From the IMG/VR virus record IMGVR_UViG_3300035130_000143: DNA of 64,000 nucleotides; one strand, written 5' to 3'. Source of the DNA: an uncultured virus (IMG/VR IMGVR_UViG_3300035130_000143). Lineage: Duplodnaviria; Heunggongvirae; Uroviricota; Caudoviricetes. The translations under genes were made by a program, and so were the position numbers. The notes beneath the pieces are model-generated. The model did not search any database, was not told where the DNA came from, and saw nothing but the letters and a program-made list of their open reading frames with translations. This document shows positions 11,925-50,924 of the stretch, one piece after another (the stretch's first letter is position 1; each line of letters starts with the position of its first letter).

Positions 11925-13361
11925 CTATGCGCCCAGGTCCTCGCCGCGCTCGTTGCGCCACTGCATAACGAGAGCCTGATTCTCAAAGAGCAGTTGGGCG
12001 TAGCCTTTGAGTTCCTTGCTGTACCTGTCGCCTTGGGCGTTGGCGACCCGTCCCCATACCAGGCGGTCGAATTTGTGCAACGGGTCGCCGCTGGGGCCAA
12101 CCGCCAGCATGGCGGTCTCGATGTCGTCCAGGGTGGGACCGCATTGTTGCTCCGGCGCTTCGCCTTGCTCTAACTCGTCAAAGTCGGCATTCTCCCAGAC
12201 TGGCGCGTCATCTTCGTCAAACTCAACGCTTTCGACCTGCGCATCCTGGGCCGGGGCTGCCAATTGCGCCACGGGCGGCGCTCCTGGCAAAGCCCGCGCT
12301 GACATATCTTCGAACATAGCGCGCACATAATCAGGGTGCGTTTCCAGGCTCAGGAGATATTTTTCGCGCCGCGCCCGCTTTCCACCCTCGCCGCTGGGAG
12401 TTGAAATGCTCTCGGCCCTCAATTCCAGCACGAACGGAATACCCTGCAGGCGCCCAATGCACTCTTGATACCAGCGCATTTGCCCAGTCAGATTGATAAT
12501 GTTGTGAATGCTTCCCGTCGCCACCTGGTAGTACGCCAGACGTCCCATTTCCGGAATAATGACAATGAGCAGGGCGCGGGGGCGACAGTTCTTGCACCGA
12601 CCATAGCTGTGATCCAGGCCGGGACAAGCCACGGGGTCGCCCTGGGTAATCTTGACGCCGCCGCTCAAGCCGTTGCTGATCTGCGCCACGCCGTTCCTGA
12701 CCAGCACCTCTCCTGTGTTGGGGTTGATGGCATAGTCAATCAACTCGCCGTTGCCCTGGCATACGAGGCCGCCCGCCGACCAGAGTTGATGCCACGCGGG
12801 GAAATTGCGGTCAATCTCATCAAACGGCAAGAGTACGTTCAACCTGGTCGGCTTGTCGCCGTAAATATCAATCAAATCTGGCGCATCCCTGAGCACAAAA
12901 TAGTCGGTCGCGGCAGGGTACTCTTTGCCCGTGCGCGCGCTCGTCTTTTTTATTCCCAGGCGAATGATACCGGCGCGCTTGAGCCGCGCCGTTGCTCTTT
13001 TCTGCAAATCCAAGATAGGCATAATTTTGCTCCTTTTTAGTCCCTCGGCGGCGTCTATTGCGTCCGCCTCTTGTTTGGCTACAATATAGTCACGTTTGGC
13101 TTTTGGAATAGCTCTGCCAAGCTTCGCTACATCGTGGCCCTCGCCCGCGCATAAAATTCTTAGTTTCCCGTCCACCACGCGGGGGTTGATGTCGGCATAG
13201 CATTCTGGACAAGCAAAGTTCACTTGCAACTCGCTCAGGCGCATGGCTTTGCCGTTGACAGCATAATGCCCGTGAGGCAACCCGCGCCCGTCGCTGGCAG
13301 TGGCGGGACAGCGAATACACTCACTGCGCCCATTACGGTATGTCCAGAGATGATTGCACAT
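11925..13361 (-). CDS. Gp3-like/recombination-directionality-factor-like protein (internal SD+ATG at 13022) in frame with an upstream Zn-ribbon segment
   Basis: GIIRLGIKK...YPAATDYF...LVCQGNGE...CPG..C..C.PRALL...T.S..NI..L...LQGIPFVL pattern. Confidence 0.7.
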   Translation of the reverse strand: MCNHLWTYRNGRSECIRCPATASDGRGLPHGHYAVNGKAMRLSELQVNFACPECYADINPRVVDGKLRILCAGEGHDVAKLGRAIPKAKRDYIVAKQEADAIDAAEGLKRSKIMPILDLQKRATARLKRAGIIRLGIKKTSARTGKEYPAATDYFVLRDAPDLIDIYGDKPTRLNVLLPFDEIDRNFPAWHQLWSAGGLVCQGNGELIDYAINPNTGEVLVRNGVAQISNGLSGGVKITQGDPVACPGLDHSYGRCKNCRPRALLIVIIPEMGRLAYYQVATGSIHNIINLTGQMRWYQECIGRLQGIPFVLELRAESISTPSGEGGKRARREKYLLSLETHPDYVRAMFEDMSARALPGAPPVAQLAAPAQDAQVESVEFDEDDAPVWENADFDELEQGEAPEQQCGPTLDDIETAMLAVGPSGDPLHKFDRLVWGRVANAQGDRYSKELKGYAQLLFENQALVMQWRNERGEDLGA

Positions 13362-17783: not shown

Positions 17784-18473
17784 TCACGGCGTCTCGCCAT
17801 GCTCAAAGCGGGCGGAGCGGGCCACTTTTGCAATTAGCTCTCCCGCTCTTGTCCAGTTAAGTTTTACCAGTTGCAAGTTGTTTTCTTTGAAATAGCGCGG
17901 CATGTCTTCTACCCCAATAGAAAAAACGTGCTTGTGTGTAATCTCGCCTGCAACAAAATACAAGTTGTAAAAACCCCCTTGCGAGTCACTGCACCATTTT
18001 TCATTGTGTGCATTGCGGGCCTTGCTTCCCAGCCACCAAACACAGCTAATACCATGATCCGCGTAGCTCAAGGTGCGCTCTTTCAGGTCGCCCAAGGTGA
18101 TACTTGACAGTTGTATTTCGTGCGCTGTTTGCTTTCCGCTGTCCTCTGTTAATAAAACGTCAGCTATGCGCCCCGCCTTTCTATTCATCACCTCAAGTTC
18201 CACTGTTGCACCAGAGTATTCTTGCTGCAAAAACTCCATTACATAACGCTTGGCATCCATGTGATTTTCGCTTTCGCCACGACTTTTGCACATACTATCA
18301 GGATTAGCATAGTGGCAAAAGTGCGGACGCTTTATCTCTCCAGCTTTGATATACAGAGATTCGCCGCACTCTTGGCATACCAGGGCATCTTTGTCTATCT
18401 GCTCTTTTGGCTTGTCAAAGTGCAAAATACAAATACGTTTTTGGGTGTGGCGATCAAGGGCGACGAATGGCAT
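17784..18473 (-). CDS. CoiA-like nuclease
   Basis: CQECGE...KRPHFCH...ESENH..AK; RIADV...AHEIQLS. Confidence 0.85.
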   Translation of the reverse strand: MPFVALDRHTQKRICILHFDKPKEQIDKDALVCQECGESLYIKAGEIKRPHFCHYANPDSMCKSRGESENHMDAKRYVMEFLQQEYSGATVELEVMNRKAGRIADVLLTEDSGKQTAHEIQLSSITLGDLKERTLSYADHGISCVWWLGSKARNAHNEKWCSDSQGGFYNLYFVAGEITHKHVFSIGVEDMPRYFKENNLQLVKLNWTRAGELIAKVARSARFEHGETP

Positions 18474-22565: not shown

Positions 22566-22717
22566 CCAACACCCCATGCGCACATGGAGCGCACGCTGGC
22601 ATACGAACGGGCTTGTGTATTCTGGACCAACACCCCATGCGCACATGGAGCGCACGCGCGGTAGGAGCCGGTCCACGCTCGCTATAGTCCAACACCCCAT
22701 GCGCACATGGAGCGCAC
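22566..22717 (-). CRISPR. CRISPR-like mini-array: three identical 29-bp repeats GTGCGCTCCATGTGCGCATGGGGTGTTGG, spacers of 33 and 32 bp
   Basis: repeats at 22566-22594, 22627-22655, 22689-22717; internal hairpin CTCCATG-TGCG-CATGGGG; unique spacers. Confidence 0.85.
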
Positions 22718-22830
22718 ACTAAAAACTTAGTGTGCATCCAGGTTTTATTCTGCAAGCAGATACCAGGTTCCTGGTTCACAGTAGTGCATTTCATCGCACT
22801 AACTCCCCAGGCAAGCATCGTCTGTTTGAC
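22689..22830 (-). ncRNA. putative TnpB omegaRNA/tracr-like scaffold overlapping the tnpB 3' end and running into the first repeat
   Basis: GCCTGGGGAG...GTGAACCAGGAA (resembles IS605/IS607 omegaRNA motifs) and a hairpin pairing with the repeat 5' end. Confidence 0.6.
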
Positions 22831-24025
22831 GACTCACTAAAGCGGCCAGGTTCAATGCCGCATTTTCGTCTCTGTCAATGACACCGCCGCAACTATCACA
22901 ACGGTATTCCCTGTCTGACAATTTCAAATCCGACTTGATTGCTCCGCACATCGAACAACGTTTACTCGACGGCTCCCACCTATCAGCCAGCATGACCTTG
23001 CTGCCAACCCAGCGAGCTTTGTACTCAACCTGCCTGCGCAGCTCTCCCCACCCAACATCGCCTATAGCCTGCGCCAGACAATGATTTTTCATCATCCCGC
23101 TGACGTTCAAGTTCTCAAGAACAATGACGGATGGTTTTAATTGAAAAGTCAGGTAAGAACTGATTTCGTGCAATGTGTATTTACGAGCATTGGCAAGATC
23201 AAAGCAAGCTCGTTGCAACTTAGCTTTGGTTTTCAGCCAGTTTGCGCCGCCTTTCTTTCGCCTTGCTAATTCACGGTTCAGTCTATCAATTTTTCTCTGT
23301 GCATTTTTTAGATGTCTTGGGTTTTCAAAGACCTTGCCATTGGAGCACACCGCAAGGCTCTTTATTCCAAAATCAACACCGATAACCTTGCCACTTGTTT
23401 CCAGTTGTTCAATTTCTTCCTCTACCAATACTGAGATAAACCATCGTCCTGCATGCTCTGAAACTGTAGCGTATGTTCCATATTTCGCAGCATCGGTTGG
23501 GATGTAGTCTCGCTCCTTGAGTTTGATAAGGCCAATGCGGGTTAAGCGCACATGGTCAGAGTAAACTTTTGTGCTGGTCAATTGGAATGATTTCCCATCC
23601 TTGTGTCGGCTTTTGAACTGAGGATAACCAGGGTCAAGTTGGAATCCTTTGCGACCTTTTCTCAACCGTTTCCTACAATGCTTCTCCCACTTTCCAGACC
23701 TTTTCAAATCGGAGATACGCTTGACAACCGTGCCGTCTTTCTTCTCCTTAAAATACCGAGTGAAGGCACTGTCTAGGTTTCTGAAAGTTGCCTCTGTTAT
23801 AGCGTAGGGCACTGCTACCACCCAGGGGCATTGTTCATGCTTAAGGGCATTAAAGGCTTTCTTTTGAGCCAGCTTGCTAGTTGTCTCTTTTTGAGCATAT
23901 CTGCGCTCATGGTCTGCCAGTGCCCAATTGTAAACAAATCGAGATACGTCTGTACATTGCTTCAGAAACGCTCTCTGCTTATCATTAGGGTCAAGCTCTG
24001 TTTTATATGCTCGTAAAATTTTCAT
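22799..24025 (-). CDS. tnpB: RNA-guided endonuclease TnpB (IS605/IS607 OrfB; Cas12-like), RuvC triad intact, no tnpA nearby
   Basis: RAYKTELDPN N-terminus; GVDFG, VLENLNV, DRDENAALNL; CSMC...CDSC zinc finger. Confidence 0.95.
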   Translation of the reverse strand: MKILRAYKTELDPNDKQRAFLKQCTDVSRFVYNWALADHERRYAQKETTSKLAQKKAFNALKHEQCPWVVAVPYAITEATFRNLDSAFTRYFKEKKDGTVVKRISDLKRSGKWEKHCRKRLRKGRKGFQLDPGYPQFKSRHKDGKSFQLTSTKVYSDHVRLTRIGLIKLKERDYIPTDAAKYGTYATVSEHAGRWFISVLVEEEIEQLETSGKVIGVDFGIKSLAVCSNGKVFENPRHLKNAQRKIDRLNRELARRKKGGANWLKTKAKLQRACFDLANARKYTLHEISSYLTFQLKPSVIVLENLNVSGMMKNHCLAQAIGDVGWGELRRQVEYKARWVGSKVMLADRWEPSSKRCSMCGAIKSDLKLSDREYRCDSCGGVIDRDENAALNLAALVSRQTDDACLGS

Positions 24026-24042
24026 GCTCATCAATCATCATA

Positions 24043-24120
24043 CCAATACCCCACACACCTACGGGGTACACTCAATATCCCAATTTCCTGACCAATGCCC
24101 CCTGCGCCTTCGGGGTCCAC
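24043..24120 (-). repeat. two degenerate 29-bp copies of the array repeat upstream of tnpB, 20 bp apart
   Basis: GTGGACCCCGAAGGCGCAGGGGGCATTGG (24120-24092) and GTGTACCCCGTAGGTGTGTGGGGTATTGG (24071-24043); each 19/29 identical to the array repeat without gaps. Confidence 0.65.
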
Positions 24121-36441: not shown

Positions 36442-36512
36442 AGCGCGGTAGAGTAACGGCTACTCGGCGGTCTCATAAGCCGCACAAGCGGGTTCGAGCC
36501 CCGCCCGCGCAA
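36442..36512 (+). tRNA. tRNA-Met(CAT), initiator-like; CCA not encoded
   Basis: cloverleaf: AGCGCGG/CCGCGCA, D-stem GAGT/ACTC, anticodon loop CTCATAA, T-loop TTCGAGC. Confidence 0.85.
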
Positions 36513-36854
36513 CTATACCCAACAGCCCAGTCGTTCGTACCGTGGGTGTCGGGAGCGGCGGTATCCTGGGCCACTGCTCAAATTGTCTACTAGAGCCTTT
36601 GAAACGAAATGCCAGGACGGGAGACAAGGGCATCAGCAAAGCGGGGAGCGTTCTAGTTAAGCTCCCAACGGTTGTACCTGGCGCTCGACTGGCTACAGTG
36701 GCATGTGACCAGCCGCGCCAGTTTTTAACAACGCCTCATTAGTAATAGCTTTGATGAGGCAAAATCGGAGCGCCGCGTCTGCCCAATACAGACGCGGCGT
36801 AAACAATAGAGCGCCGCGCCAGTTATGGCAACAGGCGCGGCGCTGAAGTTATCG

Positions 36855-37724: not shown

Positions 37725-38243
37725 ATGGACTTGAACGATTGGGCGCAAAAGGCATTAGAGAAGTGCGATCCGGCAAGCAAGCCGGTTTCGCTATACTGGT
37801 TTGAGCATGTGAAATATGATTCGGATGTGGACTGGTGCTATGAGTGCGCCATTGCCCTCATGGAATATTTCAACGGCGAGACCGAGCGCCCCGAAACGGT
37901 CTGGGAAGACGAGGAGATTCCCGATTGGTCCCCTGGGCCTGATAGCGTTGCTCTTGCTGGCGGCTGGGCAATCGAATCGGACACCGCGAGATTTTGCGCT
38001 CGGTGCGGGCGCAGGCTGGAATTTTGCCCGACTGACTATTTTTGCAAGAGTGAGCTGGAATATTATGAGAATTACACCCCCAGGGGTGACTGGCGCAGTT
38101 TTCAGATATTCCTGGATGCAATGGATGAATACTGCGCCTCAGGACGGGACTGGTATTCGCGGGCATTGAGGCTTGCCGAGAAATACCTGGGGACCGAAAC
38201 TATTGACCGGTGGGGACGGCGCACAGTTGAGGTAAAAGGCTAG
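37725..38243 (+). CDS. hypothetical protein
   Basis: 172-aa ORF. Confidence 0.65.
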   Translation: MDLNDWAQKALEKCDPASKPVSLYWFEHVKYDSDVDWCYECAIALMEYFNGETERPETVWEDEEIPDWSPGPDSVALAGGWAIESDTARFCARCGRRLEFCPTDYFCKSELEYYENYTPRGDWRSFQIFLDAMDEYCASGRDWYSRALRLAEKYLGTETIDRWGRRTVEVKG

Positions 38244-38806
38244 TGAACCAACAGACTCCCCTCGTCATCACAGCCCAGACCATCCCTGCCGCCGAAGGAA
38301 TGAAAGTGCATTTTTCACAGAAGTCCAACGAATGGGCCACGCCTCAAGATGTGTTTGACAAACTGGATAGCATGTTTGGGCCATTCTCTTTGGACCCCTG
38401 CGCCACTCCCGAAAACGCAAAGTGCGAGCGGTTTTTCACGGCAAAAGAAGACGGGATAAAACAGGACTGGGGTACACACACTGTTTTTATGAATCCGCCA
38501 TACGGTAGGCAGATCGGGCGGTGGATTGCCAAAGCCTACCACGAAAGCTTGCAGGGCGCTATGGTGGTCTGCTTGATTCCAGCACGTACAGACACAGCAT
38601 ACTGGCATGATTACGTTATGCGCGCTGGCGAGGTTTATTTGCTACGCGGGCGCATAAAGTTCGTGGGGAGCAATAGTTCTGCGCCTTTTCCATCTTGCGT
38701 TGTGGTTTTTTATCCAAGAGATCATGACCAGTCACCTCTTTTTTTCTCGCTTGATTCACGTGCGGAGCGATGGGAAAGATACCACGAGGACGATATTCAT
38801 GAATAA
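38243..38806 (+). CDS. phage N6-adenine DNA methyltransferase (Dam-like)
   Basis: EWATPQ, LDPCAT, FMNPPYG, LIPARTDT..WH, GRIKF. Confidence 0.92.
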   Translation: MNQQTPLVITAQTIPAAEGMKVHFSQKSNEWATPQDVFDKLDSMFGPFSLDPCATPENAKCERFFTAKEDGIKQDWGTHTVFMNPPYGRQIGRWIAKAYHESLQGAMVVCLIPARTDTAYWHDYVMRAGEVYLLRGRIKFVGSNSSAPFPSCVVVFYPRDHDQSPLFFSLDSRAERWERYHEDDIHE

Positions 38807-38927
38807 CAATCAAGTCCCTTTAGTCGCGACGGCGCAAACCATTCCCGGATTTGTGGCATGCGATCTGAGCGCGCCGGGTTTATCCGGTCCCTGGAAAAGC
38901 GGACGTTTGAGCAGAGGACATGGTGGA

Positions 38928-39476
38928 ATGACGAAAATGCTGATGCTTGACTTAGGTGCTGGATTAGGTGGCGCGTCTGAGGCAATGCGCCGACGCGGGT
39001 GGAATGTCGTAACGGTGGACATCAACCCGGAGTTTAACCCCGACATCGTGGCTGACTTACGCACGTGGTCCTGGGACGGCCCGCGCCCAGACCTGGTGTG
39101 GGCCAGCCCGCCCTGTGATGAATTTGCCAAGTTCGCCATGCGTTGCTGGTATGACGTGGATGCACTGGCTACCCCTGATGTGTCGCTGGTGTTGGCCTGT
39201 AAGCGTGTCATAGATGAGTGTCACCCGCGATTCTGGATTATCGAGAACGTGCGGGGAGCCATACAATTTCTTGAACCGATATTGGGCACGCCGCGCAAGT
39301 TTCGCCCCTATTATTTGTGGGGACACTTCCCATGCTTGGGTGATGTGAAAAGGCACACATGGGGCACAAAAACAAAAAAACTATCCTCTACCGCAAAGGC
39401 CGAACGCGCTGAGATACCATACTCGTTGAGCAAGGCTGTGGCCCTGGCGATAGAGCGACAGGGTGAATTGTTGTGA
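38928..39476 (+). CDS. compact C5-cytosine methyltransferase-like protein
   Basis: LDLGAGLGG, WASPPC, IIENVRG. Confidence 0.8.
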   Translation: MTKMLMLDLGAGLGGASEAMRRRGWNVVTVDINPEFNPDIVADLRTWSWDGPRPDLVWASPPCDEFAKFAMRCWYDVDALATPDVSLVLACKRVIDECHPRFWIIENVRGAIQFLEPILGTPRKFRPYYLWGHFPCLGDVKRHTWGTKTKKLSSTAKAERAEIPYSLSKAVALAIERQGELL

Positions 39477-39606
39477 CTGATAGGCCAACCATAGCCACAT
39501 TTTGTTCAGTGGCGTGGGTAAAGGGGACCGGGGCGCGCTTATTGCCTGAACGCGCCCCGGTTGAGGAGAAATACTACAAAAAGCTGATGGTTGAGGATAT
39601 TTTATC

Positions 39607-40308
39607 ATGAACGGTGTGGAAATGTCAAGAGTTATTTACGGCGACGCCCGCGAGATAGACCTGGCGCAGTTTGACCGCTACCAAACGATAGCGGCAGACC
39701 CGCCGTGGTTTTACAACGATCAGCGCAAAGTGCGCAAGGATGGCGCTACCCCCACGGCAGGTATAGGCGCGTGTCATCACTATGACCAAATGACCGTTGA
39801 AGAAATCTGCGCCATGCCCGTTGCCCAATTGGCCGCATCCCGCTGTCATCTCTACCTCTGGGCAACCGCTCCACTCTTACCCGACGCCTTGCAGGTCATG
39901 AACGCCTGGGGCTTTGAATACGCGACTGTTGCCTTTGCCTGGGTAAAGATGAACCCTGGCGCGTGGGGCGAGGCGCAGATCAGGATAAATCAACTAGATA
40001 TGTTTGGAACGCCGGACGAGCAGGTCGCGGCGTTCATGGATAACCTGGCTTTTTTCGGTCCTGGTTTTTACACCGGCTCAAACGTAGAACTTGTGCTGCT
40101 CGGACGGCGCGGTAAACCGTTCGCCCACGCCAAGGGCCGGAAAGCCGCGCAGGCCATCTTTGCTCCACGAGGAGAACACAGCGCCAAGCCTGAGCGGGTG
40201 CAAGACTTGATAGAATGGATGTACCCTGGCGCCGCGCCGCGTCTTGAGCTTTTCGCAAGGCGAGCGCGAGTAGGATGGGATGTATTTGGCAATGAAATAC
40301 AAGATTGA
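39607..40308 (+). CDS. MT-A70 family adenine methyltransferase
   Basis: ADPPW, LYLWAT, AWGFEY...WVK, EHSAKP, LELFARR..GWDVFGNE. Confidence 0.92.
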   Translation: MNGVEMSRVIYGDAREIDLAQFDRYQTIAADPPWFYNDQRKVRKDGATPTAGIGACHHYDQMTVEEICAMPVAQLAASRCHLYLWATAPLLPDALQVMNAWGFEYATVAFAWVKMNPGAWGEAQIRINQLDMFGTPDEQVAAFMDNLAFFGPGFYTGSNVELVLLGRRGKPFAHAKGRKAAQAIFAPRGEHSAKPERVQDLIEWMYPGAAPRLELFARRARVGWDVFGNEIQD

Positions 40309-40347
40309 CGCGCCGGTTGTAAAATCGGCGCTAGAGCCACGAGAGCT

Positions 40348-41175
40348 GTGGCAAAGGCGGCTGTGGTGAGTAAATCAGTAGCGCAATACATTGTAGACGG
40401 ATTAAAATTGGAATTAAACCCAAAACTAGAGCAGCACACTGAAACTGATCTTGATACCGTATGCGCTATAACCGGTGAGCGCATTACTCAAGGCATTTTC
40501 TGGAAACATGTAATTCCTTCCTCAACAGGAGAATATTTGGGCCTCATGAGCGGTATGGCGTTCCCGTACCTGGGTATCCCCGCTGCCATGGCGTTCAAAG
40601 GCAGTTGGAACATGGGAAGCCGTCTGATTTTTGAGGACGGAACCATGTATCATCCGTACATTTCTACTGCAAGCGCAGAGAAAAGCGAACGTACCTGTTG
40701 GCGCGACCTGGTGCGCGACGTGTGGCCTGCGCGCCAGGGGCAATCGTGTCTCTGCATCATCACCGATGACTACAAAAAGAAAATTTGGCCGATGGCGCGG
40801 ACTGGAGAATTGGGTATGAATACACCAGTTCTTTTGTTAGATTCAGACAGGCTGCCGCCATCAAAAAACATAGCCTCACCCAGGCGCCTGGTTAGCCGTC
40901 TGGCATTACATAGATTGACAATTAACTGGGAAAAATTGATAGCGGTTCTCGATTTTGTCGAAACTGTTCGCGCTGCTGGCTTCGGTAGACAGGCTATCTC
41001 GGAAAGCCTGTTTACGTTCTACGCGGCGCTGATGGAGAATCAATCAACTGTGTCGAGCTGGGAAGCTCGATTGGTCGAACTGCGCGAGACGCCAGAGTTT
41101 GCCGTGGCGCTATTGATTGCGCAAAAAGATGTCGCTGAACAAGGCAAACGAGAAAAGCAACTTAGTTTTTTATAA
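40348..41175 (+). CDS. csf1: type IV CRISPR large subunit Csf1 (Cas8-like), putative
   Basis: position upstream of csf2, size, CAITG motif, KKKIWP motif. Confidence 0.65.
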   Translation: MAKAAVVSKSVAQYIVDGLKLELNPKLEQHTETDLDTVCAITGERITQGIFWKHVIPSSTGEYLGLMSGMAFPYLGIPAAMAFKGSWNMGSRLIFEDGTMYHPYISTASAEKSERTCWRDLVRDVWPARQGQSCLCIITDDYKKKIWPMARTGELGMNTPVLLLDSDRLPPSKNIASPRRLVSRLALHRLTINWEKLIAVLDFVETVRAAGFGRQAISESLFTFYAALMENQSTVSSWEARLVELRETPEFAVALLIAQKDVAEQGKREKQLSFL

Positions 41176-41186
41176 GGAGAATAAAA

Positions 41187-42629
41187 ATGCAAGCGAAACA
41201 TTTTCAATTGGCGCTGACGGCTAAAGAGGCCATCAGTCACCACGACCCAACGACGGGAAACGACAGTAATATTCTGACGTTCAACCGTCAATTACAGTTC
41301 GTCAAGCGCGACCCAACCGACACGCCGGTTTTTAGCCATCTGGTCGAGGCGCTTTGTGAGCAGAATCCTATGCCCGCGAGCGTGGGCGCGCTGACGAGTC
41401 GTCTGAATTTGCCGGAATGGTTGAGTGCGGCTTACATTCGTCTCTTGTTAGACATCCACAATAAAGCTGACACCGACACTGACGAAAGTCGAGAGAAAAA
41501 GACAAAGAAAAAAGATGGGCAAGGGCTGTTGTCGGGCATGCAGCGGTATCGCATGCTCGAAAACCGCCTGCAAACGTCAGCGGTAAAATGCTCAACACTA
41601 CACGGTTTGTGGTCTGTACTGACACATGATTTGTTGTTGGAAATGCATGACAGCAAACACGACGAGGCCATAGCCGCGTTCTGGACGCTTCCCCCCAGCG
41701 TCCAGTATTCTATGCTCACGACGATGAGCAAGCAACACCGCGCAGTTTCAACTCTGGCGCGTGTCTGGCACGCGGCAAACAAATGCCAGAGCGCAGAGTA
41801 TTGCGCGGCTGCAAAGATTCCTTATGCGCCCCAGGAGATGGCAGCGCGCTCGTTCACCGACGAGGATTTTCCAGAGCCGCCAGACGAGATAGTACTAGAT
41901 GTGCCCGCGATTAGCGTCAACAGTCTACGTCATCAACTGGTGCGCGAGCCGTCCTGGTTGCACCTGTGTTCATTGTTGGGGATTGAACCTCAGGCTAGAG
42001 GCGAGGGACCGTTGCCCGTGGGGGCCGACGCGATTTTTGCCAATGGCGGAAACATTGAAAAAGGCGCGAGCCAGCCAAGCAACACATTTTATCTGGCTGG
42101 CGAGATTCGCAAAGCCTACCCATCACTGGACTTGTTGGGCGGTACAACCTCGTCGTTTGACCTGGGCGAAAGTAAGCTGGAACTTTCGGCCTGGATTGTC
42201 TGCAAGGAAAATGCGGACAATCTGCCCGCCGCGCTACAGAATACGGCGCAGGCCCAAACCAGCGTGTTTGAAATGCTAGACGAGGTAACGCGCACGCGCC
42301 ACGCCACAGCAGACGGACAGGGCCAGATGATTTACAACTACGAGACCCTGGTAGCAGGTACGCAGGTCTTTGTCGAGTTGGCGCTAACGCCATACACCAC
42401 GGCGCTGACCGAGGGTGCGCTGGCGGCGGCGCTGGATTACTATGAGCGGAATGACAATGTGATAGGCGGCCAGTCCGCTCGCGGGCATGGGCACGTGAGC
42501 GTTGAATGGCTGACGGACAAGCCGCAGGGCATGGCTGACTATGAGCAGTTTGTCACAGAGCGCAAGGATGAATTGTACAACGGCCTCGTGAACAAGACGC
42601 TGTGCTCTGGCGCGCAGGTGATTAAATAG
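41187..42629 (+). CDS. csf2: type IV Cas7 (Csf2) with a large helical insertion resembling Cas11
   Basis: LTAKEAISHH, VPAISVNSLRHQL, FANGG, YPSLDLLGG, TRTR, QMIYNYETLVAGT, IGGQSARGHG. Confidence 0.88.
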   Translation: MQAKHFQLALTAKEAISHHDPTTGNDSNILTFNRQLQFVKRDPTDTPVFSHLVEALCEQNPMPASVGALTSRLNLPEWLSAAYIRLLLDIHNKADTDTDESREKKTKKKDGQGLLSGMQRYRMLENRLQTSAVKCSTLHGLWSVLTHDLLLEMHDSKHDEAIAAFWTLPPSVQYSMLTTMSKQHRAVSTLARVWHAANKCQSAEYCAAAKIPYAPQEMAARSFTDEDFPEPPDEIVLDVPAISVNSLRHQLVREPSWLHLCSLLGIEPQARGEGPLPVGADAIFANGGNIEKGASQPSNTFYLAGEIRKAYPSLDLLGGTTSSFDLGESKLELSAWIVCKENADNLPAALQNTAQAQTSVFEMLDEVTRTRHATADGQGQMIYNYETLVAGTQVFVELALTPYTTALTEGALAAALDYYERNDNVIGGQSARGHGHVSVEWLTDKPQGMADYEQFVTERKDELYNGLVNKTLCSGAQVIK

Positions 42630-42630
42630 C

Positions 42631-43377
42631 GTGGACGAGATTGCACGCGCTGGATTTTTAGCGCATGCCATGTTGCCTGTATACAAGCGGCGCGTGGCGC
42701 GGGCTAGAGAGTGGATTCGTCGGGCATTGGAGTTGTGCCATAGTCCATACGTGGCATGGAGCGTGGGCGGCAAAGATTCATCTGTCATGTTGGATTTGGT
42801 GTTGGAGCAATCGCCCATAGAGGCCCGCGTGTTGGTTAGTGGAGAGACCAGGTATTTATTTCCAGAATTTAACGGAATAATTGAATGGTGGCAGAGAAAG
42901 CATGGAAACAAGTTGATGGTCTCTCTTATTGAAACTGATAGGGTATGGTCAAGCAACATGGCGTTTGATGAACAGCGCAAGGCCGGGCGCAACGACATCA
43001 TGAACTTACTTCCGACAGAAGCGCATGACCTGGTTTTTTTAGGCTTGCGCGACAAGGAAAGTAATCGGCGCGAGTTAGCCAATAAGCGCGGCATTATCCG
43101 TCGCTATGCACAATCGCGAAAAAAGAATATCCGGGGAACTTACGTGTGTGTACCAATAGCCAAACTGACCACAAGGGACATAGCAGCATACACCGTAACT
43201 AATCAAATACCAGTATTCAATGTGTATACAGAATGCGGATTTGATGAACGCACAACTCTGCGTCTGACGGGAGATGCGGTGCGGCAAATGGCATTTCAGC
43301 GATTGCGCATAACTAACCCAAAAGAGTATAATGCCTTGCTGCACAGATTTCCCGAACTCAACCAATGGAATGGATAA
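42631..43377 (+). CDS. cysH: CysH/PAPS-reductase-family PP-loop protein of a type IV-B locus
   Basis: YVAWSVGGKDSSVM, FLGLRDKES.RR, PIAKLTTRDI. Confidence 0.85.
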   Translation: MDEIARAGFLAHAMLPVYKRRVARAREWIRRALELCHSPYVAWSVGGKDSSVMLDLVLEQSPIEARVLVSGETRYLFPEFNGIIEWWQRKHGNKLMVSLIETDRVWSSNMAFDEQRKAGRNDIMNLLPTEAHDLVFLGLRDKESNRRELANKRGIIRRYAQSRKKNIRGTYVCVPIAKLTTRDIAAYTVTNQIPVFNVYTECGFDERTTLRLTGDAVRQMAFQRLRITNPKEYNALLHRFPELNQWNG

Positions 43378-43779
43378 ATGGATGTACTTCTGTATCAAGT
43401 TAATCGCAACCTGAACCGAGCATATCGCACGGCAGAAGCATTCGGTGTGGCGCGTATGTTATTGCTAGATTGCGGCAGCGCGCTATTGGCCGGAAATCTA
43501 TTCAAGGCGCGAGACCGGGTGAAACTTGTATCAATTGACAAGTGGCCTGCTCCCTGGGGGCTGTTGGCGCTAGAAACTTACTACCCACACTCAATAGAAA
43601 TCACGGACTGGTCAGAAGTGACTACTATTGTAATTGGCGGGGAATCTCATGGGCTGCCGCGCAATCTCGAAGCAGCACAGCGTGCGCGAATACTTACGGT
43701 TGGCGCAATATCGGGACTAACCGTTGAGGCCGCCCTGGCTATAGCATTATATGAATGGAGGCGAAATGATTCGTATTAA
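43378..43779 (+). CDS. SpoU/TrmH-like SPOUT methyltransferase (minimal)
   Basis: RNLNRAYRTAEAFG, IVIGGESHGLP, GLTVEAALAIALYEW. Confidence 0.8.
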   Translation: MDVLLYQVNRNLNRAYRTAEAFGVARMLLLDCGSALLAGNLFKARDRVKLVSIDKWPAPWGLLALETYYPHSIEITDWSEVTTIVIGGESHGLPRNLEAAQRARILTVGAISGLTVEAALAIALYEWRRNDSY

Positions 43780-44527
43780 AGAACTTGACGCCCTAACCTC
43801 AAAATTTGCACAGTGCGCTCTTGACCCCCTGCGCGTGACGTTCTACCTGGAACACAACGCTCGCGTGGTCAACTATGACCCAATTCATCTTGATGGACTG
43901 CTGGCCCGCGCCGTGGTCGAACGCGCCACGCGGGGGCGCTTGCTGGCTGACTGCGAGGACGGCTACTGGATACCGTTGCCGCTTCAAATGTTGTGGCAGA
44001 GCGATGATGGGTTTCCGCTCTGGGCGTCCACCATGCTCTATCCAGCCGCAAAGACCATAAAAGACGTTTATGTACGCCACAAGCGCAACTCTGGCGGCGA
44101 GTTGCACAATAGAAAGAAAATGATTACCCGGAAAGGCTCCTGGATGGAGCGGCGCATACCCACCCCCACGCTGGTGTGTGACCGGTACGAGGCATATTGT
44201 GTCGGCAACCTGGACGCCGTGCAAAATCTACTTGGCGGCTTTGCACGCATTGGCAAGTTGCGCCTGGCGCGGGTCAACGGCGTCAAAGTTGAACCAGTAG
44301 ATGAATTTTCACTTTGGCGAGGCGACAAACTGGCGCGGCCCGTGCCCGCTGAATCAAAGCTGATTGACCTGGTTGAGAAACCGTCTTTAGTCGGCTGGAC
44401 GCCGCCGCACTGGAAACCGTCATTGTTCTCGCCTGGCTGGCAGGCGGGAACAAGGCGAGCAGAGAACTTGCGAGAGTTTTTGGACTTGACATATTTACAG
44501 GAGATAGATTATTTTGACGCAGTGTAA
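43766..44527 (+). CDS. csf3: type IV Cas5 (Csf3)
   Basis: PLRVTF...IHLDGLLA, PLWAS, YCVGN...V..LL....IGK, RPVP, PPHW. Confidence 0.85.
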   Translation: MIRIKELDALTSKFAQCALDPLRVTFYLEHNARVVNYDPIHLDGLLARAVVERATRGRLLADCEDGYWIPLPLQMLWQSDDGFPLWASTMLYPAAKTIKDVYVRHKRNSGGELHNRKKMITRKGSWMERRIPTPTLVCDRYEAYCVGNLDAVQNLLGGFARIGKLRLARVNGVKVEPVDEFSLWRGDKLARPVPAESKLIDLVEKPSLVGWTPPHWKPSLFSPGWQAGTRRAENLREFLDLTYLQEIDYFDAV

Positions 44528-44768
44528 TGTGAACCGACTTGTGGATATTTGGCTTTTTTTGTCCGAGCGCCCAAGCCGTGGTACGGCTGTGTCTGATGCG
44601 CTTGGACTTCCTCGGTCATACATTTATAACCACGGCTTGCATCAAATGGAAGAGCGGGGCTTTTTATTGAGCCAGGATGAAAAAAGTCGTCTGTACCCGT
44701 TCAAGATTTGCGATATGGAAAACTTTCGCCTGATGCCGTGTGCAGAGCGCCCACGGCGCAGGTTGTGA
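44514..44768 (+). CDS. small winged-helix-like protein
   Basis: VSDALGLPRSYIY...MEERGFLLSQDE. Confidence 0.5.
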   Translation: MTQCNVNRLVDIWLFLSERPSRGTAVSDALGLPRSYIYNHGLHQMEERGFLLSQDEKSRLYPFKICDMENFRLMPCAERPRRRL

Positions 44769-44783
44769 TGCGTTGAGGCGGCT

Positions 44784-45923
44784 GTGGTGAAAGCGTTCTA
44801 TGCCGACGACCGAGTGAAGTTGTATCGGGCCGACGCCCTTGACCTCTTGCGCAGTCTTGACGCCGCCAGCGTCAGCCTCATTTTTGCCGACCCGCCCTAT
44901 AAAGGCGTAAAAAATCTCTGGTGGGACAACCAATGGAAAAGCGACGCCGACTTTTTGGCCTGGATAGGCGCGCTCTGCGATGGGTTTAAGCGTGTGTTGG
45001 CTCCCAATGGCAGCTTCTACGTCTGCGCTAGTCCGGCGATGGCCTGGGCAGTTGAGGGCCAGGTGCGCCAGCGGTTCAATGTGCTAAACTCTATCCGGTG
45101 GTACAAAGACGCGGGCTGGCACAAAAAAGCGCGACCAGAGGACCTGAGAAGCTACCTGGAGCCGTGGGAGAGCATCATTTTCGCAGAACAATGGTGGGCC
45201 GATGCCAGCGCCGAGGGTGAGGCGGGCTACTATTCCCAGTGCAAGGCGTTGCACAAAAATGTCTACGCGCCCATTGGTCGCTACATCCAACAGGAGCGGG
45301 AGCGGGCGGCCCTGAGCAGGAATGACGTTGAGGTTGCTCTTGGGTACGTGTCAGGTAACGACCCGACAAGAGGGACGGCGTTGTGCTATCGGTGGGAAGA
45401 AGGATCAAGCCTACCGACTAAAGATGCCTATGAGCGCCTGCGCGTGTACCTGAACACGCATGGGAATGGTTGTGGTGAGTACTTGCGCGAAAGCTATGAG
45501 TATCTGCGCGAAAGCTACGAGGACTTGCGCGCAGAGTATGAAAGCCTGCGCCGCCCATTCACCCTCACCAAAGACCGTCCCTCAACTGATCTGTGGACCT
45601 ACGAGTCGGTGCAGCCAGACGACGAAAAGCACCCGACCGAAAAGCCGCTAGAAATGCTCTTAGACATCGTAAAGACATCGAGCCGCCCGATGGACCTTGT
45701 TGTTGACCCGTTCCTGGGGCGCGGCGCAACTGCCGTGGCGGCCCAGGGGTTGGGCCGCCGCTTTGTCGGGGGCGATATTCAAGAGCACTGGGTCAGCGCC
45801 ACGGTTTCCAGACTGAAAGAGGCTCGGGGAGAAATGCACATGCGGGTCAGGCGCAGGGATGAGCCGCAAAAACAAGCAGGACAAATTGACCTGTTTGAAA
45901 TACTAGAACGAGGGCTAGAGTGA
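44784..45923 (+). CDS. N4/N6 DNA methyltransferase (beta class) with an inserted XRE-like HTH
   Basis: ADPPY, HPTEKP, DPFLGRG; insert IQQERERAALSRNDV...RWEEGSSLP. Confidence 0.9.
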   Translation: MVKAFYADDRVKLYRADALDLLRSLDAASVSLIFADPPYKGVKNLWWDNQWKSDADFLAWIGALCDGFKRVLAPNGSFYVCASPAMAWAVEGQVRQRFNVLNSIRWYKDAGWHKKARPEDLRSYLEPWESIIFAEQWWADASAEGEAGYYSQCKALHKNVYAPIGRYIQQERERAALSRNDVEVALGYVSGNDPTRGTALCYRWEEGSSLPTKDAYERLRVYLNTHGNGCGEYLRESYEYLRESYEDLRAEYESLRRPFTLTKDRPSTDLWTYESVQPDDEKHPTEKPLEMLLDIVKTSSRPMDLVVDPFLGRGATAVAAQGLGRRFVGGDIQEHWVSATVSRLKEARGEMHMRVRRRDEPQKQAGQIDLFEILERGLE

Positions 45924-46046
45924 ACTTGTTTTGCGCTGACGACCGAGTGAAGCTATACCAGGCTGACGTCCTACACTGGGCGCGTTGGTACAAGGATGAG
46001 ATAGTTTGGGAAAATCGAACCCCCGGGGGCGTAAAGAGAGGTGATT
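45921..46046 (+). pseudogene. 5' remnant of a DNA methyltransferase gene
   Basis: VNLFCADDRVKLYQADVLHWARWYK resembles the starts of the 44784 and 50925 genes. Confidence 0.6.
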
Positions 46047-47264
46047 GTGGAATTGAACGATTTTACTTTTAGCGGAATGATTTTGATACTTCTAGGCGCG
46101 GCGCTCGCTTATGTGCGTGCTGTTCCACGGGCGCTATGGCAGTTTATCAAGACGCGATTTACAATTGTCATAGATGTGACTGAGCGGGACGTGTTTTATG
46201 ATTGGGTGGCGAACTGGCTGGCCGAGCAAGAGCACTTCAAGAAATGTCGCCGTCTATCTGTGTCTGCACAGCGCAAGAGAGAGGATGATGTCGCGGAGCT
46301 AACTTCTGACTCAGGGCGCAAAGCCTGGCAAATCAAAGTTGTTCCTGCCCAGGGAGAGCATTTCTTTATGTGGCGCGGTTGCAGAGTATGGATGCACAAA
46401 GATCGCGAAAAGCTCAAAGAGACAGGAGTGTTCCTGGGATTTTTCGAGTCAGTTCAATTTACATTTCTAACACGTAATCGCACACTTGTTGAAAGTTTCT
46501 TGGATGAGGTGCGTCAATTCAATGTCTCAGACGACGATGCCAGGCTTGCCATTTACACAAATCAATATTCCTCTTGGAGACTGTTTTCTTTGGTTCATCC
46601 ACGGTCGCCAAATACCGTTGTCCTAAGCGATGATAAAATGCAATCTCTCATTAAAGATATAGAACAGTTTTTTGCGTCAAAGTTATGGTATAGAGAACAC
46701 GCTATACCGTATCGGCGCGGCTATCTTTTACATGGCCCACCAGGGAACGGCAAAAGCAGTTCGGTGCGGGCGCTTGCGTCTCATTTCGGGCGTGATGTGT
46801 ATATCCTGCGCGCCGGAAAAGACTTGGACGATGCGAATTTTATGGAGTTGTTGATTGATTTGCCAGAGAATGCTTTTTTGTTGATAGAGGACGTTGATAA
46901 AATTTCCGATGACAGAAACGAGAACAGATTGACTCGTAGCGGCTTTCTCAATGCACTTGACGGGATTGCGGCCACGACTGGCAGAGTCGTTTTCATGACG
47001 ACAAACTTTGTAGACGAATTGGATGAGGCGCTAATGCGCCCCGGTCGCGCCGATGTAGTTTGGTTCATTGACACACCTACGAGGCAACAGGCTGAAATTT
47101 ATCTCAATCGCTTTCTGGATACTGCCAACACAGAGCGTGTTATATCGGCCATGAGCGATTTGAACGGCAGAATGTCTATGGCTGCTTTGCAGGCTGAGAT
47201 TATTCGTCGCTGTACTCCAGGGGCGCAAGGAGTGAAAATCAATGAACAAGCTCAAGAACAATAG
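46041..47264 (+). CDS. BCS1-like AAA+ ATPase with an N-terminal TM segment
   Basis: IPYRRGYLLHGPPGNGKSS, LLIEDVD, SGFLNALDG, MTTN, ALMRPGRAD. Confidence 0.9.
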   Translation: MIVELNDFTFSGMILILLGAALAYVRAVPRALWQFIKTRFTIVIDVTERDVFYDWVANWLAEQEHFKKCRRLSVSAQRKREDDVAELTSDSGRKAWQIKVVPAQGEHFFMWRGCRVWMHKDREKLKETGVFLGFFESVQFTFLTRNRTLVESFLDEVRQFNVSDDDARLAIYTNQYSSWRLFSLVHPRSPNTVVLSDDKMQSLIKDIEQFFASKLWYREHAIPYRRGYLLHGPPGNGKSSSVRALASHFGRDVYILRAGKDLDDANFMELLIDLPENAFLLIEDVDKISDDRNENRLTRSGFLNALDGIAATTGRVVFMTTNFVDELDEALMRPGRADVVWFIDTPTRQQAEIYLNRFLDTANTERVISAMSDLNGRMSMAALQAEIIRRCTPGAQGVKINEQAQEQ

Positions 47265-47645
47265 TTTTGAGGGCGGGAGCATGGAGAATCCCTACAGCGG
47301 CGACCGGGGAGAACACGAGATTGCACAGAAAGAAATTCGGCTGGCGTCCTCGTGAAACGCAAGCGCGCCCTGAAGATACAGCCAGGAGACCGTGTACTCT
47401 GCCAGATATTCAACCCCGTCACCGGCGGCTTTGGCCGCCCGTTCGAGGGAGTAATTGAGGACACCGAGGGCCTCATGTACCTGGTGCGCCCACGTGGGCG
47501 GGGGTACTTGGAGCCGTTGCAGAGGAAGGAGATCAAAGTGGTAAAGGGGATAGGATGGGGGTAGCTTGCCAGACCATTCCCCTGACGAGTTCGAGGCCCT
47601 GGGCCTGTCGCTGGTCGAGGGCGAGGATAATCAGATACCCCTGGG

Positions 47646-48806
47646 ATGGGGATAGAGGAGAGTAGAATGTTGCTACACAGAGACGACAAAGGCCGCGCCG
47701 TGCTGACGTGCGGCGGCGCGAAATACATCTTAGACGGGGGCTGCGTCTACGACGAGCGCGGCAAGCAAGTCGGCGCTGCGGCCCTGCTCGCGGCGCTGGA
47801 AAAAGGAGCAGGGGAAAAGAGCCGCCCGCCCCTCACCATTTTCATTGATGACATCGGGCGCACCTGGCTGGCCTGCGGGGCGCACGAGTGTCTAGTAGCG
47901 CACCCTGACTATCTGACCGACACAGACGCCGTATCGAGGGACCGCTACCTGCGCAACCTGTCCAATTTCATCCACGCCAGCGCAAGCAACGACGCGCTGG
48001 TGGTGGGCGACAATCCGTTGGACGCGCCGCCGCCCAGTCTCCCGCTCGAGCGGCATAACGAGCGGGAGTTGAGCGTGGGGATAGATGACGGGCGCACCGC
48101 CATTGAGGACTGGTGGATAGCGCGCGCGCCCACTGACGCGGTTAAGTTTTGGCAATCAGTGCTGCGTGAGATTCGCAAGCTGACCGGTAACGAGACGACC
48201 CTGCGCCGAGGGAGCGACGCCCTGGCGAGCGCGGCGGTCGAGGCTCGTGAATTCGGTCTGACCGCCGATTTCACCTTGACCGTAGACGGTTCGAGAGACT
48301 ACCGCTACAACCAGAAAAAACAGCAGTGGTCTCACAACCTCTTGCCTGTTGACTTTGGTCGGGCGCTCTACGAGGCCCTGCGCGAAAAGTCGCGCCTGCC
48401 AGACGAGCGCGCCCGCTTTGCAGCCCCGCAGGATGGGGCGCTGGTGGTAGAGCTGTTGGAGCATTGCGCGATTGACGCCTTTGACCTGCGCATCGGGGAC
48501 GTCGTGTATGAATATGCGTTTGGGGAGTGGTTCCCTGGTTCAGCGCGCGTGGACGACATCGGCCTGGAGCTTTACCGACTGCTTAGGCCGCCTACCGGGC
48601 CAAAGTACGTTGTGGTCTACGAATACAAACGCGTCCGCGTGCGCTGGAATAGTGAGGCCCTGGGGGCGCAAGTCACAGCCGATGGATGGCTGCTGTTTGA
48701 AAACGGCGAGATTGTGGTGGTTGCGCAGGCGATGACAGCCCGCAACGAAACCAGCGCCCTGGTCATCCCCAGGAGCGCCATAGTCAAGATGGAGGCGGAC
48801 GAATGA
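47646..48806 (+). CDS. hypothetical protein
   Basis: ~380-aa ORF with GAGGAG SD. Confidence 0.7.
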   Translation: MGIEESRMLLHRDDKGRAVLTCGGAKYILDGGCVYDERGKQVGAAALLAALEKGAGEKSRPPLTIFIDDIGRTWLACGAHECLVAHPDYLTDTDAVSRDRYLRNLSNFIHASASNDALVVGDNPLDAPPPSLPLERHNERELSVGIDDGRTAIEDWWIARAPTDAVKFWQSVLREIRKLTGNETTLRRGSDALASAAVEAREFGLTADFTLTVDGSRDYRYNQKKQQWSHNLLPVDFGRALYEALREKSRLPDERARFAAPQDGALVVELLEHCAIDAFDLRIGDVVYEYAFGEWFPGSARVDDIGLELYRLLRPPTGPKYVVVYEYKRVRVRWNSEALGAQVTADGWLLFENGEIVVVAQAMTARNETSALVIPRSAIVKMEADE

Positions 48807-49474
48807 ACGAAGTTAAACAAATAACCGATTACAGAAAGGCGTGCGATTGCAAAGGGACATCAAGCTCTGGAACCCACATCACCAGGGCTCCAGGGATCAG
48901 CGACAACAAAGTTACCTACCGAGAATGGTCGTCCGCAATCCCTGCCTGCAATGTGTGTGGCAAGCTGTGGAAAAAAATTGAGCAGGCAGAGCGCCCATCC
49001 CGCCTCGACCGCTTTATGGCCCGCACGCGCGAGGCCGTCGCCTGGGGCACGTGCCCGCGCCTGCCGGTCGGAGCCGTAGTCGCCCGTGGCGGGCGGCTGA
49101 TTAGCGAGGGCTGGAACGGAGCGCCGTCAGGCCAGCCGCACTGCACCGACGTGGGTTGCATCGTCGTCAATGACCACTGCGCCCGCGCCATTCACGCCGA
49201 AGACAACGCCCTGTGGTTCGCGGGCGAGCAGGCGTGCATTGGGGCGGATCTGTACGTCTCACACGTCCCCTGCTACAATTGCGCCAACCTGATCTTGCGC
49301 GCCCGCATCGCCCGCGTGATATTCGAGCACATCTACAAAGTGGACCAGGCCGCCGTGGCCCTGCTCGTGACGCGGTGCAACTTGTACCGCTACCAGGACG
49401 GCGAGTTGCTGCCGGTCTGGTCGGTTGAGCAGGTAGACCGGTGGGGGCAGAAGGAAAAGGAGTATAGGATATGA
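48803..49474 (+). CDS. dCMP deaminase with an N-terminal extension
   Basis: VGAVV, GWNG, HAEDNA, PCYNCA. Confidence 0.9.
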   Translation: MNEVKQITDYRKACDCKGTSSSGTHITRAPGISDNKVTYREWSSAIPACNVCGKLWKKIEQAERPSRLDRFMARTREAVAWGTCPRLPVGAVVARGGRLISEGWNGAPSGQPHCTDVGCIVVNDHCARAIHAEDNALWFAGEQACIGADLYVSHVPCYNCANLILRARIARVIFEHIYKVDQAAVALLVTRCNLYRYQDGELLPVWSVEQVDRWGQKEKEYRI

Positions 49475-50140
49475 CCCCCCTGATCGTTTCCGCCTACAAT
49501 CTCCCTGCCGCCTGGGAGCGTTCCATTGAAGCCCTGCTGGCCCACGGCCGGCCGACGCCCACGCAGTACGACGCCGAAGGCGAGCCGCCGTCGCTCGAGG
49601 CCGTCATGATAATGACGGTCCTCAACCCGATGGGTGAGCCGCGCGCCCATCGCAACATCCCCGAAGGGCTGGATGGCCTGCGGTAGTACGTGGCCGACGT
49701 GGTAGAGGGGGCGCGCGACTACATGGTGGACCAGGGAATCTGGACCTACTCCTACCACCGGCGCCTGTGCGAGTATCCTGGCTTGAGCTACACACGCGGA
49801 CCGGGCGAGGCCATCGGCGGCGTCATTGACCAGGTGGACCTGGCTATCGAGCGCCTGGCCGCTTTCGCTGGACATGCACCTGCACTGGCGATCCAGGGAT
49901 GCGTACAGGGCCGCCTTTATGAACCTGTACGCTTTTTCAGCCTGGCAGGCCGTGGTCGCTGCCGAGCTTGGCCGTCGCCTGGCCGAGCCGGTGACGGTGG
50001 GCGTCTTATGCGACATTACCGACAGTTACCATATTTACGGGCGCGACATCGACGCGGCCCGGCGGTTCCTGCGCAAGATGGAAAAGCGCGGGTTTGCAGA
50101 GCGGATGTGGACGACGGATGATGTGGAGAGGTTGGGGTGA
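49471..50140 (+). pseudogene. thyA: thymidylate synthase-like pseudogene (in-frame TAG plus a frameshifting internal deletion)
   Basis: WTYSYHRRL, IDQVD, WRSRDAYRAAFMN, DSYHIYG; catalytic PC segment absent. Confidence 0.75.
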
Positions 50141-50913: not shown

Positions 50914-50924
50914 GGACATTTTAA

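Follow-up and report, generated by a model that had tools for sequence, protein, structure and literature searches.

What is a short row of units like those of CRISPR (short palindromic repeats, clustered and regularly interspaced) doing in a phage genome, directly behind the gene of a transposon nuclease and at the very place where the guide of that nuclease's RNA should begin? The locus that raises this question lies within 64,000 nucleotides (nt) of DNA from an uncultured virus of the Caudoviricetes (IMG/VR record IMGVR_UViG_3300035130_000143); we call this whole stretch the window. The locus consists of tnpB, coding for a TnpB of 408 amino acids (aa), an omegaRNA-like scaffold overlapping the 3′-end of the gene, and a mini-array of three repeats with two spacers. 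Considering it together with its relatives, we saw that TnpB and the array are a real, conserved unit. We give a probability of roughly 60% to the reading that this module is functional: TnpB would be guided by at least spacer 1 via the scaffold fused to it in cis, possibly by later units as well, and Cas1-Cas2 of a type I-E kind supplied by the host would add spacers at the scaffold-proximal repeat. The parts of the module, in their order along the minus strand, are as follows.

22799..24025, minus strand: tnpB coding sequence, 408 aa; Pfam domains, RuvC D-E-D triad and CxxC...CxxC zinc finger intact
23636..23725, minus strand: basic insertion of ~30 aa (residues ~101-130) in TnpB, opposite a gap in solved TnpBs
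22718..22831, minus strand: omegaRNA-like scaffold; begins within the tnpB 3′-end, spans the stop codon and ends in stem D
22714..22735, minus strand: stem D (5′ arm 22735-22727, loop 22726-22723, 3′ arm 22722-22714)
22689..22717, minus strand: repeat 1 (29 nt), fused to the scaffold; exact copy, hairpin fold
22656..22688, minus strand: spacer 1 (33 nt), occupying the guide position of a TnpB omegaRNA
22627..22655, minus strand: repeat 2 (29 nt), exact copy
22595..22626, minus strand: spacer 2 (32 nt), unique in the window
22566..22594, minus strand: repeat 3 (29 nt), exact copy; the next gene starts 80 nt beyond, at 22485

Nuclease, scaffold and array in the window

The open reading frame (ORF) of tnpB, 24034..22799 on the minus strand, would give 411 aa if started at the in-frame TTG at 24034; the ATG at 24025 encodes the conserved start MKILRAYK and yields the 408-aa TnpB, with the stop codon at 22801-22799. 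Pfam identified, in order, HTH_OrfB_IS605 (PF12323, E 6e-16), OrfB_IS605 (PF01385, E 2e-20) and the zinc ribbon Cas12f1-like_TNB (PF07282, E 2.5e-21), all three above cut-offs; the protein also matches PHROG 506 ‘transposase’ (E 3e-104). In a 24-row alignment of the clade (A3) the RuvC residues D218, E304 and D386 (408-aa numbering) are invariant, as are the zinc-finger cysteines C357, C360, C376 and C379; triad and cysteines align with those of solved TnpB-type nucleases. The AlphaFold model (mean predicted local distance difference test score, pLDDT, 85.2) has as its top Foldseek matches ISFba1 TnpB (8iaz, E 4e-28) and ISDra2 TnpB (8h1j, E 3e-25, template modelling score 0.70/0.77), the next fold matches being Cas12f and LaTranC. 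Judged by sequence and predicted structure, the nuclease is intact in domains, D-E-D triad, zinc finger and TnpB fold. A first-pass annotation of this DNA had already described an intact TnpB of ~408 aa with RuvC acidic residues and a zinc finger; the Pfam results and the 24-row alignment agree with it.

The three 29-nt repeats are 100% identical and lie on the tnpB strand, the first of them after a gap of 81 nt from the stop codon; no such match is expected by chance (0 in 100 shuffles). Folding of the repeat gives a hairpin of 10 bp closed by a 4-nt loop (-14.1 kcal/mol), and both spacers are single-copy within the window, with up to three mismatches allowed. The same picture had been drawn by the first-pass annotation, and the coordinates, shuffles and folding bear it out. 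One DNA sequencing run (X1, possibly from the source sample) and no RNA run was listed as containing the stretch; the contigs of this single run show no variant and no joint over it, and the X1 assembly is interrupted at the repeats, where depth is about threefold. A promoter and terminator scan gave nothing above shuffled sequence.

Between gene and array, nucleotide conservation extends past the coding region, from ~30 nt before the tnpB stop to the first repeat. RNAalifold predicted 39 pairs in the scaffold for four sequences and 24 pairs for nine, with a compensatory change at 13 pairs in either case; the RNA model R1 scores 146 bits at the window scaffold. The Rfam motif Transposase-2, an RNA located 3′ of IS605 orfB genes, matches three of the relatives described below, each below the gathering score (L012, E 4e-4; L011, E 5e-3; L082, E 0.9); the window itself has no Rfam match. 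Comparison of these sequences indicates that the scaffold is under structural selection.

The last stem of the scaffold, stem D, ties it to the array. In the window, L012, L013 and L082 the 4 nt that close its 3′ arm are those that open repeat 1; in L085 and L141 the arm takes in the opening 7-8 nt. Arm and repeat start covary, being GCAC:GTGC in the window and L012 versus GAAC:GTTC in L013 and L082. Because the 3′ arm includes the start of repeat 1, stem D is similar to an anti-repeat:repeat duplex linked in cis. The scaffold of array-less relatives stops at ...TAGGTTCTGAGGAACGGT; its counterpart in the array clade, ...TAGGTCCAGGATGGAACCC, continues into the 5′ arm of stem D. The array-less scaffold thus ends where stem D of the array clade begins, so that the repeat-pairing arm sits at the canonical border of scaffold end and guide start; in a TnpB omegaRNA the guide directly follows the scaffold. 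As read from the sequence, the layout of unit 1 (scaffold, anti-repeat arm, short loop, repeat, spacer) is that of a natural single-guide RNA, followed by more repeat-spacer units.

Conservation of the array within one TnpB clade

A search for TnpB homologues gave 6626 matches among 7992 scored candidates, the best at 66-67% identity. From IMG/VR and metagenomes we took a first set of 73 loci and scanned 660 nt around each gene end for interspaced repeats; arrays were present in three of them (L011, L012 and L013), and these are the three closest full-length relatives, with 49-52% identity. A scan of IMG/VR for the conserved scaffold motif led to L079 and to the pair L077/L078, and a profile-based scan added 78 loci; among these 81 further viral loci (L077-L157) four had an array beside tnpB (L079, L082, L085 and L141). 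Two direct repeats found in other loci were rejected as arrays: a 72-nt tandem duplication in L125, apparently coding, and a 16-mer of L009 whose copies are 96 nt apart.

The array-bearing loci are exactly those that share the scaffold. With the window included, every one of the eight loci that combine an intact tnpB with a scaffold of this type has 2-5 repeats in the form of a mini-array, in the same place; no intact scaffold-type locus without an array was found in IMG/VR, which has few members, and a last pattern scan of that database returned only the contig of L085 again and two chance matches in coding DNA. The repeats are 29-30 nt long across the clade; their sequences vary, with the pattern GT..CCCAC-loop-GTGGGG..TTGG kept and with compensatory changes in the stem. 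The array period is 61 nt in six of the 14 intervals and 62 nt in the other eight. The 14 spacers (31-34 nt) are all different, with no 10-mer common to any two. Spacers, as compared here, vary between loci that are themselves distant from one another.

The eight array-bearing proteins fall on one branch (Shimodaira-Hasegawa-like approximate likelihood ratio test, SH-aLRT, 97) in a tree of 53 TnpBs with known DNA context. It takes in the window together with 34 loci of the first 73 and 18 found later, namely L079 and, from the 78, the 17 that matched best; partial matches, identical duplicates and four broken frames of the first set were omitted, and the tree comes from a quick IQ-TREE search without bootstrap. 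One change of the array label suffices on this tree, and none of 500 shuffles did as well; the sister group of the array clade (L004, L080, L083 and L095) has no arrays. An earlier tree, on which the array label appeared scattered, was set aside and replaced by this one, as 30 of its rows were proteins without known DNA context. On that earlier tree the 30 closest database proteins (P0001-P0030, 52-67% identity) all fell within the same clade, supported at 100%, so that the clade is much larger than the eight loci read. Its members are nucleases of TnpB size, and most come from phage-like contigs.

Coupling of TnpB and array, the central suggestion of the first-pass annotation, is therefore seen in 8/8 intact scaffold-type loci on one tree branch; orthologues do carry arrays. 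Its term ‘nascent’ does not fit this locus: proteins of the array clade are only 44-55% identical, and the association is older than their divergence. Genes flanking the module are not common to different loci, which indicates that the module travels as a unit.

The basic stretch that looked longer than usual in the first pass is indeed an insertion of ~30 aa when compared with solved TnpBs; of the 23 other rows in alignment A3, 12 lack it, so that half of the full 24 (12) possess it. It is located between the helix of the recognition (REC) lobe and the GYPQFKS strand and is modelled as three short helices (99-109, 113-122 and 127-130) that extend the REC helix, with pLDDT of 89-95. The insertion does not couple TnpB to the array, since it is absent from L011, L012, L013 and L079, all of them array-bearing.

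Several relatives have features of their own. In the 5-repeat array of L079 the two distal repeats have 2 and 6 mismatches, the kind of decay seen in ordinary arrays at the end far from the leader; at 1570-1653 of the same locus a diverged repeat-like unit followed by ~25 nt stands between the scaffold and the first true repeat, and by its sequence it may be an older, fixed first unit. Spacer 1 of L082 (2754-2787) is a perfect terminator-like hairpin (A-run, stem, T-run) that would halt transcription before the later units. L077 (1482-1626) and L078, identical in sequence and opposite in orientation, are an orphan scaffold that lacks a tnpB and has one hairpin unit at its end, situated between phage structural-type genes in two IMG/VR contigs; from the sequence this looks like a decayed or collapsed module.

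Use of the guides and origin of the spacers

How could such a module work? tnpB, scaffold and array would be transcribed as one RNA. TnpB would bind the scaffold and take as guide the ~16-20 nt that follow a repeat, a layout that is certain for spacer 1; spacer 2 and the sequence after repeat 3 might become usable after processing, if the anti-repeat arm (4-8 nt) pairs with each repeat. New spacers would be written in trans, at the scaffold-proximal repeat, by a type I-E-like Cas1-Cas2 of the host. The likely use would be cutting of competing mobile elements or co-infecting phages.

The suggestion of a host-supplied writer comes from array geometry. The window array shares with the type I-E array of Escherichia coli K-12 a 29-nt repeat, a central G/C hairpin and the 61/62-nt period (in E. 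coli, ten periods of 61 and two of 62); it differs in having no cas genes nearby and in the 3′ tail of its repeat (..TTGG). A 29-nt palindromic repeat with spacers of 32-33 nt is what characterizes an I-E array, and the window array has both. Pfam scans of 64 window ORFs gave neither a cas gene nor a Y1 TnpA (PF01797), in agreement with the missing tnpA of the first-pass annotation; four related IMG/VR records, of which two (68 and 105 kb, with terminal repeats) are complete, gave no Cas1, Cas6e or Y1 TnpA, and control genomes gave the expected matches. I-E-like geometry and the failure to find Cas1, Cas6e or TnpA together suggest that the spacers would be written by the host in trans; such writing would explain the 29/32-33 ruler, the identical repeats and the degenerate last repeat of L079. 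Of what the first-pass annotation had said on this point, the geometry and the lack of adaptation genes stand, and acquisition in trans keeps the rank of a proposal.

A number of results weigh against a functional module. Searches of the window, GenBank phages, PLSDB, IMG/VR and the related records gave no protospacer for any of the spacers tested. Both window spacers gave none within the window at three or fewer mismatches; with E values as high as 10 allowed, the array region had only chance-level matches of 20-33 nt among GenBank phages and the plasmids of PLSDB; the first 22 nt of each window spacer had no match in IMG/VR; and the arrays of the window and L079, compared with the four related viral records, matched only themselves. 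For spacers, the inter-unit 20-mer and post-repeat sequences the longest exact matches in the window were of 10-12 nt, which is chance level. The idea that the system targets competitors or host genes, voiced in the first pass, accordingly gained nothing from these searches and is kept here in the conditional.

The repeat itself also led to no host. Its exact sequence is absent from IMG/VR viral contigs, it matches no Rfam CRISPR repeat family, and a degenerate repeat pattern run against 185,579 species genomes found no array, giving three chance-like single matches in metagenome-assembled genomes of Firmicutes. No host I-E system with a matching repeat is thus identified, which is a weak negative result. 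Furthermore, if the scaffold paired in trans with repeats 2 and 3 of the window, only 4-5 bp would form, and beyond the repeat itself we read no scaffold complementarity to the array in the window sequence and RNA model. All arrays are very short (2-5 repeats), and array coupling is read in eight loci, the 30 closest proteins being known from protein sequence alone.

The scant pairing and the short arrays bear on the alternative that survives best, doubtful as we consider it: TnpB would use only spacer 1, fused in cis to the scaffold, each new acquisition at the scaffold-proximal repeat would replace the active guide, and older units, displaced downstream, would be inert and soon lost, the array being a short history and no library of several guides. 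The scaffold is indeed fused in cis to repeat 1 only, and complementarity of its arm to later repeats is just 4-8 nt; short arrays in 8/8 loci, decay of the distal repeats of L079, and the hairpin in spacer 1 of L082, which would cut off downstream units, all fit this alternative. On the other hand, the window repeats are 100% identical, perhaps owing to recent copying or selection. Also, for the two-spacer array of the phage nuclease Cas12r the accessible part of a preprint reports that both spacers gave CRISPR RNAs (crRNAs) and protection, though Cas12r has no scaffold (bioRxiv 10.64898/2026.04.20.719267).

One could also propose that the mini-array serves the type I-E Cascade of the host, as a hijacker or a decoy, with tnpB and scaffold as a neighbour that supplies transcription. 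Repeat length, hairpin and the 61/62 period are those of type I-E, and two reports (PMC10651486, bioRxiv 10.1101/2024.10.29.618823), in the parts available to us, describe mini-arrays of phages and RNAs resembling repeats, by which Cas proteins of the host are used or blocked. We judge this unlikely: repeat 1 is built into a stem of the TnpB scaffold that is conserved and covaries, its distance being fixed in 8/8 loci, the array is inherited along with the TnpB clade, and no genome array with the window repeat turned up.

Two more repeat-like units precede tnpB in the window.

24043..24071, minus strand: upstream unit B, 29 nt, 17 nt before the tnpB ATG; 10/29 mismatches to the repeat
24092..24120, minus strand: upstream unit A, 29 nt, 20 nt upstream of unit B; 10/29 mismatches, folds weakly

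The fold of unit B is identical to that of the repeat (10-bp stem, 4-nt loop) and is preserved by compensatory changes. The two units fill nearly all of the 104-nt gap between the upstream gene and tnpB; one such repeat-like match per window is expected by chance, and two side by side at this spot are not. No similar units were present in six other loci with upstream sequence. From their sequences, units A and B may be left-end remnants, remnants of an older array, or a cr-like regulatory RNA.

IS605 elements carry hairpins at their left and right ends, and repeat-like hairpins on both sides of tnpB, on the same strand, would agree with the window repeats being right-end hairpins of an IS200/IS605 element, of the type bound by TnpA, multiplied by transposition or recombination and without adaptive function; we consider this the least probable explanation, since a period held at 61/62 nt over 14 intervals, in eight diverged loci whose spacers are unique, calls for a ruler, neither the window ORFs nor the four viral records gave a Y1 TnpA, each record has a single tnpB copy, and upstream units occur in the window only (1/7 loci with upstream sequence). 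In short, neither Y1 TnpA nor several copies or recognisable ends, by which a mobile IS200/IS605 element is known, were observed; the upstream hairpins of the window are the only trace of this kind.

Known systems, phage surroundings and significance

The module has counterparts among described systems. As related in the available parts of several texts, TranC (Jin et al., Cell 2025) is the name given to such transposon-CRISPR intermediates, for which a functional split of the omegaRNA into trans-activating CRISPR RNA (tracrRNA) plus crRNA was proposed (bioRxiv 10.64898/2026.03.27.714800, bioRxiv 10.1101/2025.09.28.678669, PMC13565253, PMC13639567). So far as these parts describe them, TranC systems resemble the window system in a RuvC nuclease of TnpB size that descends from IS605-type TnpB, a short array downstream at the omegaRNA guide site, the lack of cas1 and cas2, and the logic of a tracr-like scaffold with a crRNA-like repeat; some are phage-borne (CauTranC9). 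According to the portion seen of a 2026 preprint, a TnpB-sized TranC9 is found in phage and characterised TranC clades have repeats of 32-38 bp (bioRxiv 10.64898/2026.03.27.714800); compared with what is given there, the present clade differs in repeats of 29-30 nt, spacers of 31-34 nt and a scaffold still joined in cis to repeat 1. LaTranC (PDB 9jfo/9jfq) matches window TnpB over residues 267-402 only (E 7.5e-21; ISDra2 TnpB, E 1.7e-44), so the full-length similarity that would place the window protein in the LaTranC clade is not seen in the sequences.

Cas12r of the Thermus phages Lalka is, in the available part of its description, similar in array type: its repeats are of 29 bp and its spacers of 31-33 nt, and the repeat resembles the I-E repeat of the host. 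In the crRNA 26 nt of repeat are followed by 18 nt of spacer; one repeat suffices, and interference was shown; adaptation by the host I-E module was proposed, and spacers target integrative elements (bioRxiv 10.64898/2026.04.20.719267). Like the window system, Cas12r is there without adaptation genes and has its guide 3′ of the repeat. The differences are in protein and scaffold: LalCas12r has 564 aa and no BLASTP similarity to window TnpB (E 0.37 versus Lalka27a gp54), and the array of Lalka27a starts 15 bp after the gene with neither scaffold nor tracrRNA, unlike the window, which has a scaffold. The Cas12r repeat of Lalka27a (L159, 3525-3614) equals the window repeat at 16/29 positions, including the central GCGCATGG. 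On sequence comparison the window clade and Cas12r are independent lineages that converged on the same array type.

Forty candidate groups of small TnpB-like proteins with a consistent downstream array and no other cas genes, V-U6 to V-U45, are listed in the accessible part of Altae-Tran et al. 2023, where duplication of an omegaRNA segment or insertion beside an existing array is proposed as the origin (PMC10691335). None of the contig names looked for appears in one supplementary file of that paper. From the other side, ISDra2 and ISFba1 TnpB (PDB 8h1j, 8exa, 8iaz) have the same fold, domain order, D-E-D triad and zinc finger as window TnpB, with a scaffold at and past the 3′-end of the gene and the guide directly after it; the window system differs from them in having no TnpA, a single copy, several guide units and the ~30-aa helical insertion in the REC lobe.

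What defines a type V or TranC-like system, a RuvC effector with an adjacent array conserved across the effector clade, is present here, and as seven relatives keep the layout, the window system belongs to the class of transposon-to-CRISPR intermediates. In the literature searched, outside which lay the clade tables of the TranC and V-U papers, no description of the present clade was found. The first-pass annotation had called it an independent type V-like system. This is right in kind, and by sequence the clade appears as a separate lineage matching none of those compared; the novelty was overstated, the concept having been published for V-U variants, TranC and Cas12r. Three traits in combination set the clade apart: the TnpB size of its protein, a complete scaffold that is still fused to repeat 1, and an array of I-E-type geometry.

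A bolder view can be put forward tentatively, as a possibility that we would not bet on. As the scaffold ends in an I-E-type repeat, each new spacer would land at the cis-guide position of TnpB. The guide slot of the omegaRNA would then be writable by host I-E Cas1-Cas2, making the system a self-updating single-guide nuclease that needs no adaptation genes of its own; mimicry of the I-E repeat would have arisen independently in at least two unrelated phage TnpB lineages (the present clade and Cas12r), and units A and B could be a cr-like RNA regulating tnpB.

The surroundings of the module are phage-like. A DUF927 primase/helicase adjoins the locus, and the window also has a polymerase-like fragment and a tail-fibre-like protein, together with at least five DNA methyltransferases and many ORFs that have PHROG-only matches or none. 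A search of IMG/VR gave no relative of the primase beside the locus, and hence no sister phage without tnpB by which the borders of insertion could be defined. The tnpB region had no DNA match in GenBank phages, the best tblastn match there being of 41% identity. Each of the four related IMG/VR records holds one tnpB copy.

Genes for DNA modification are dense on the plus strand at 38243-52892: a Dam-like, an MT-A70 and two N6_N4 methylases, a 655-aa methylase-like protein, a PAPS-reductase-domain protein, a SpoU-type methylase, a deoxycytidine monophosphate (dCMP)/cytidine deaminase and a BCS1-like AAA ATPase. Genes of regulation and recombination are among those on the minus strand, at 11925-13361, 17784-18473 and 1519-1911; they encode a 478-aa protein with a Gp3-like recombination-directionality domain, a CoiA-like nuclease and a small sigma-70 region-4 protein. 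A tRNA-Met (CAT) gene (36442-36513) marks the switch from leftward to rightward gene blocks.

With a 408-aa TnpB, a complete scaffold and an array at the guide position, the window offers a clean natural example of the step from transposon nuclease to CRISPR effector. Seen beside the unrelated Cas12r of Thermus phages, it suggests a recurring event in phages, the coupling of TnpB to arrays that could be extended by the adaptation machinery of the host. The system is small, which makes the origin of TnpB-attached arrays, by duplication or by capture, testable; and the clade offers nucleases of TnpB size that may be programmable from a CRISPR array.

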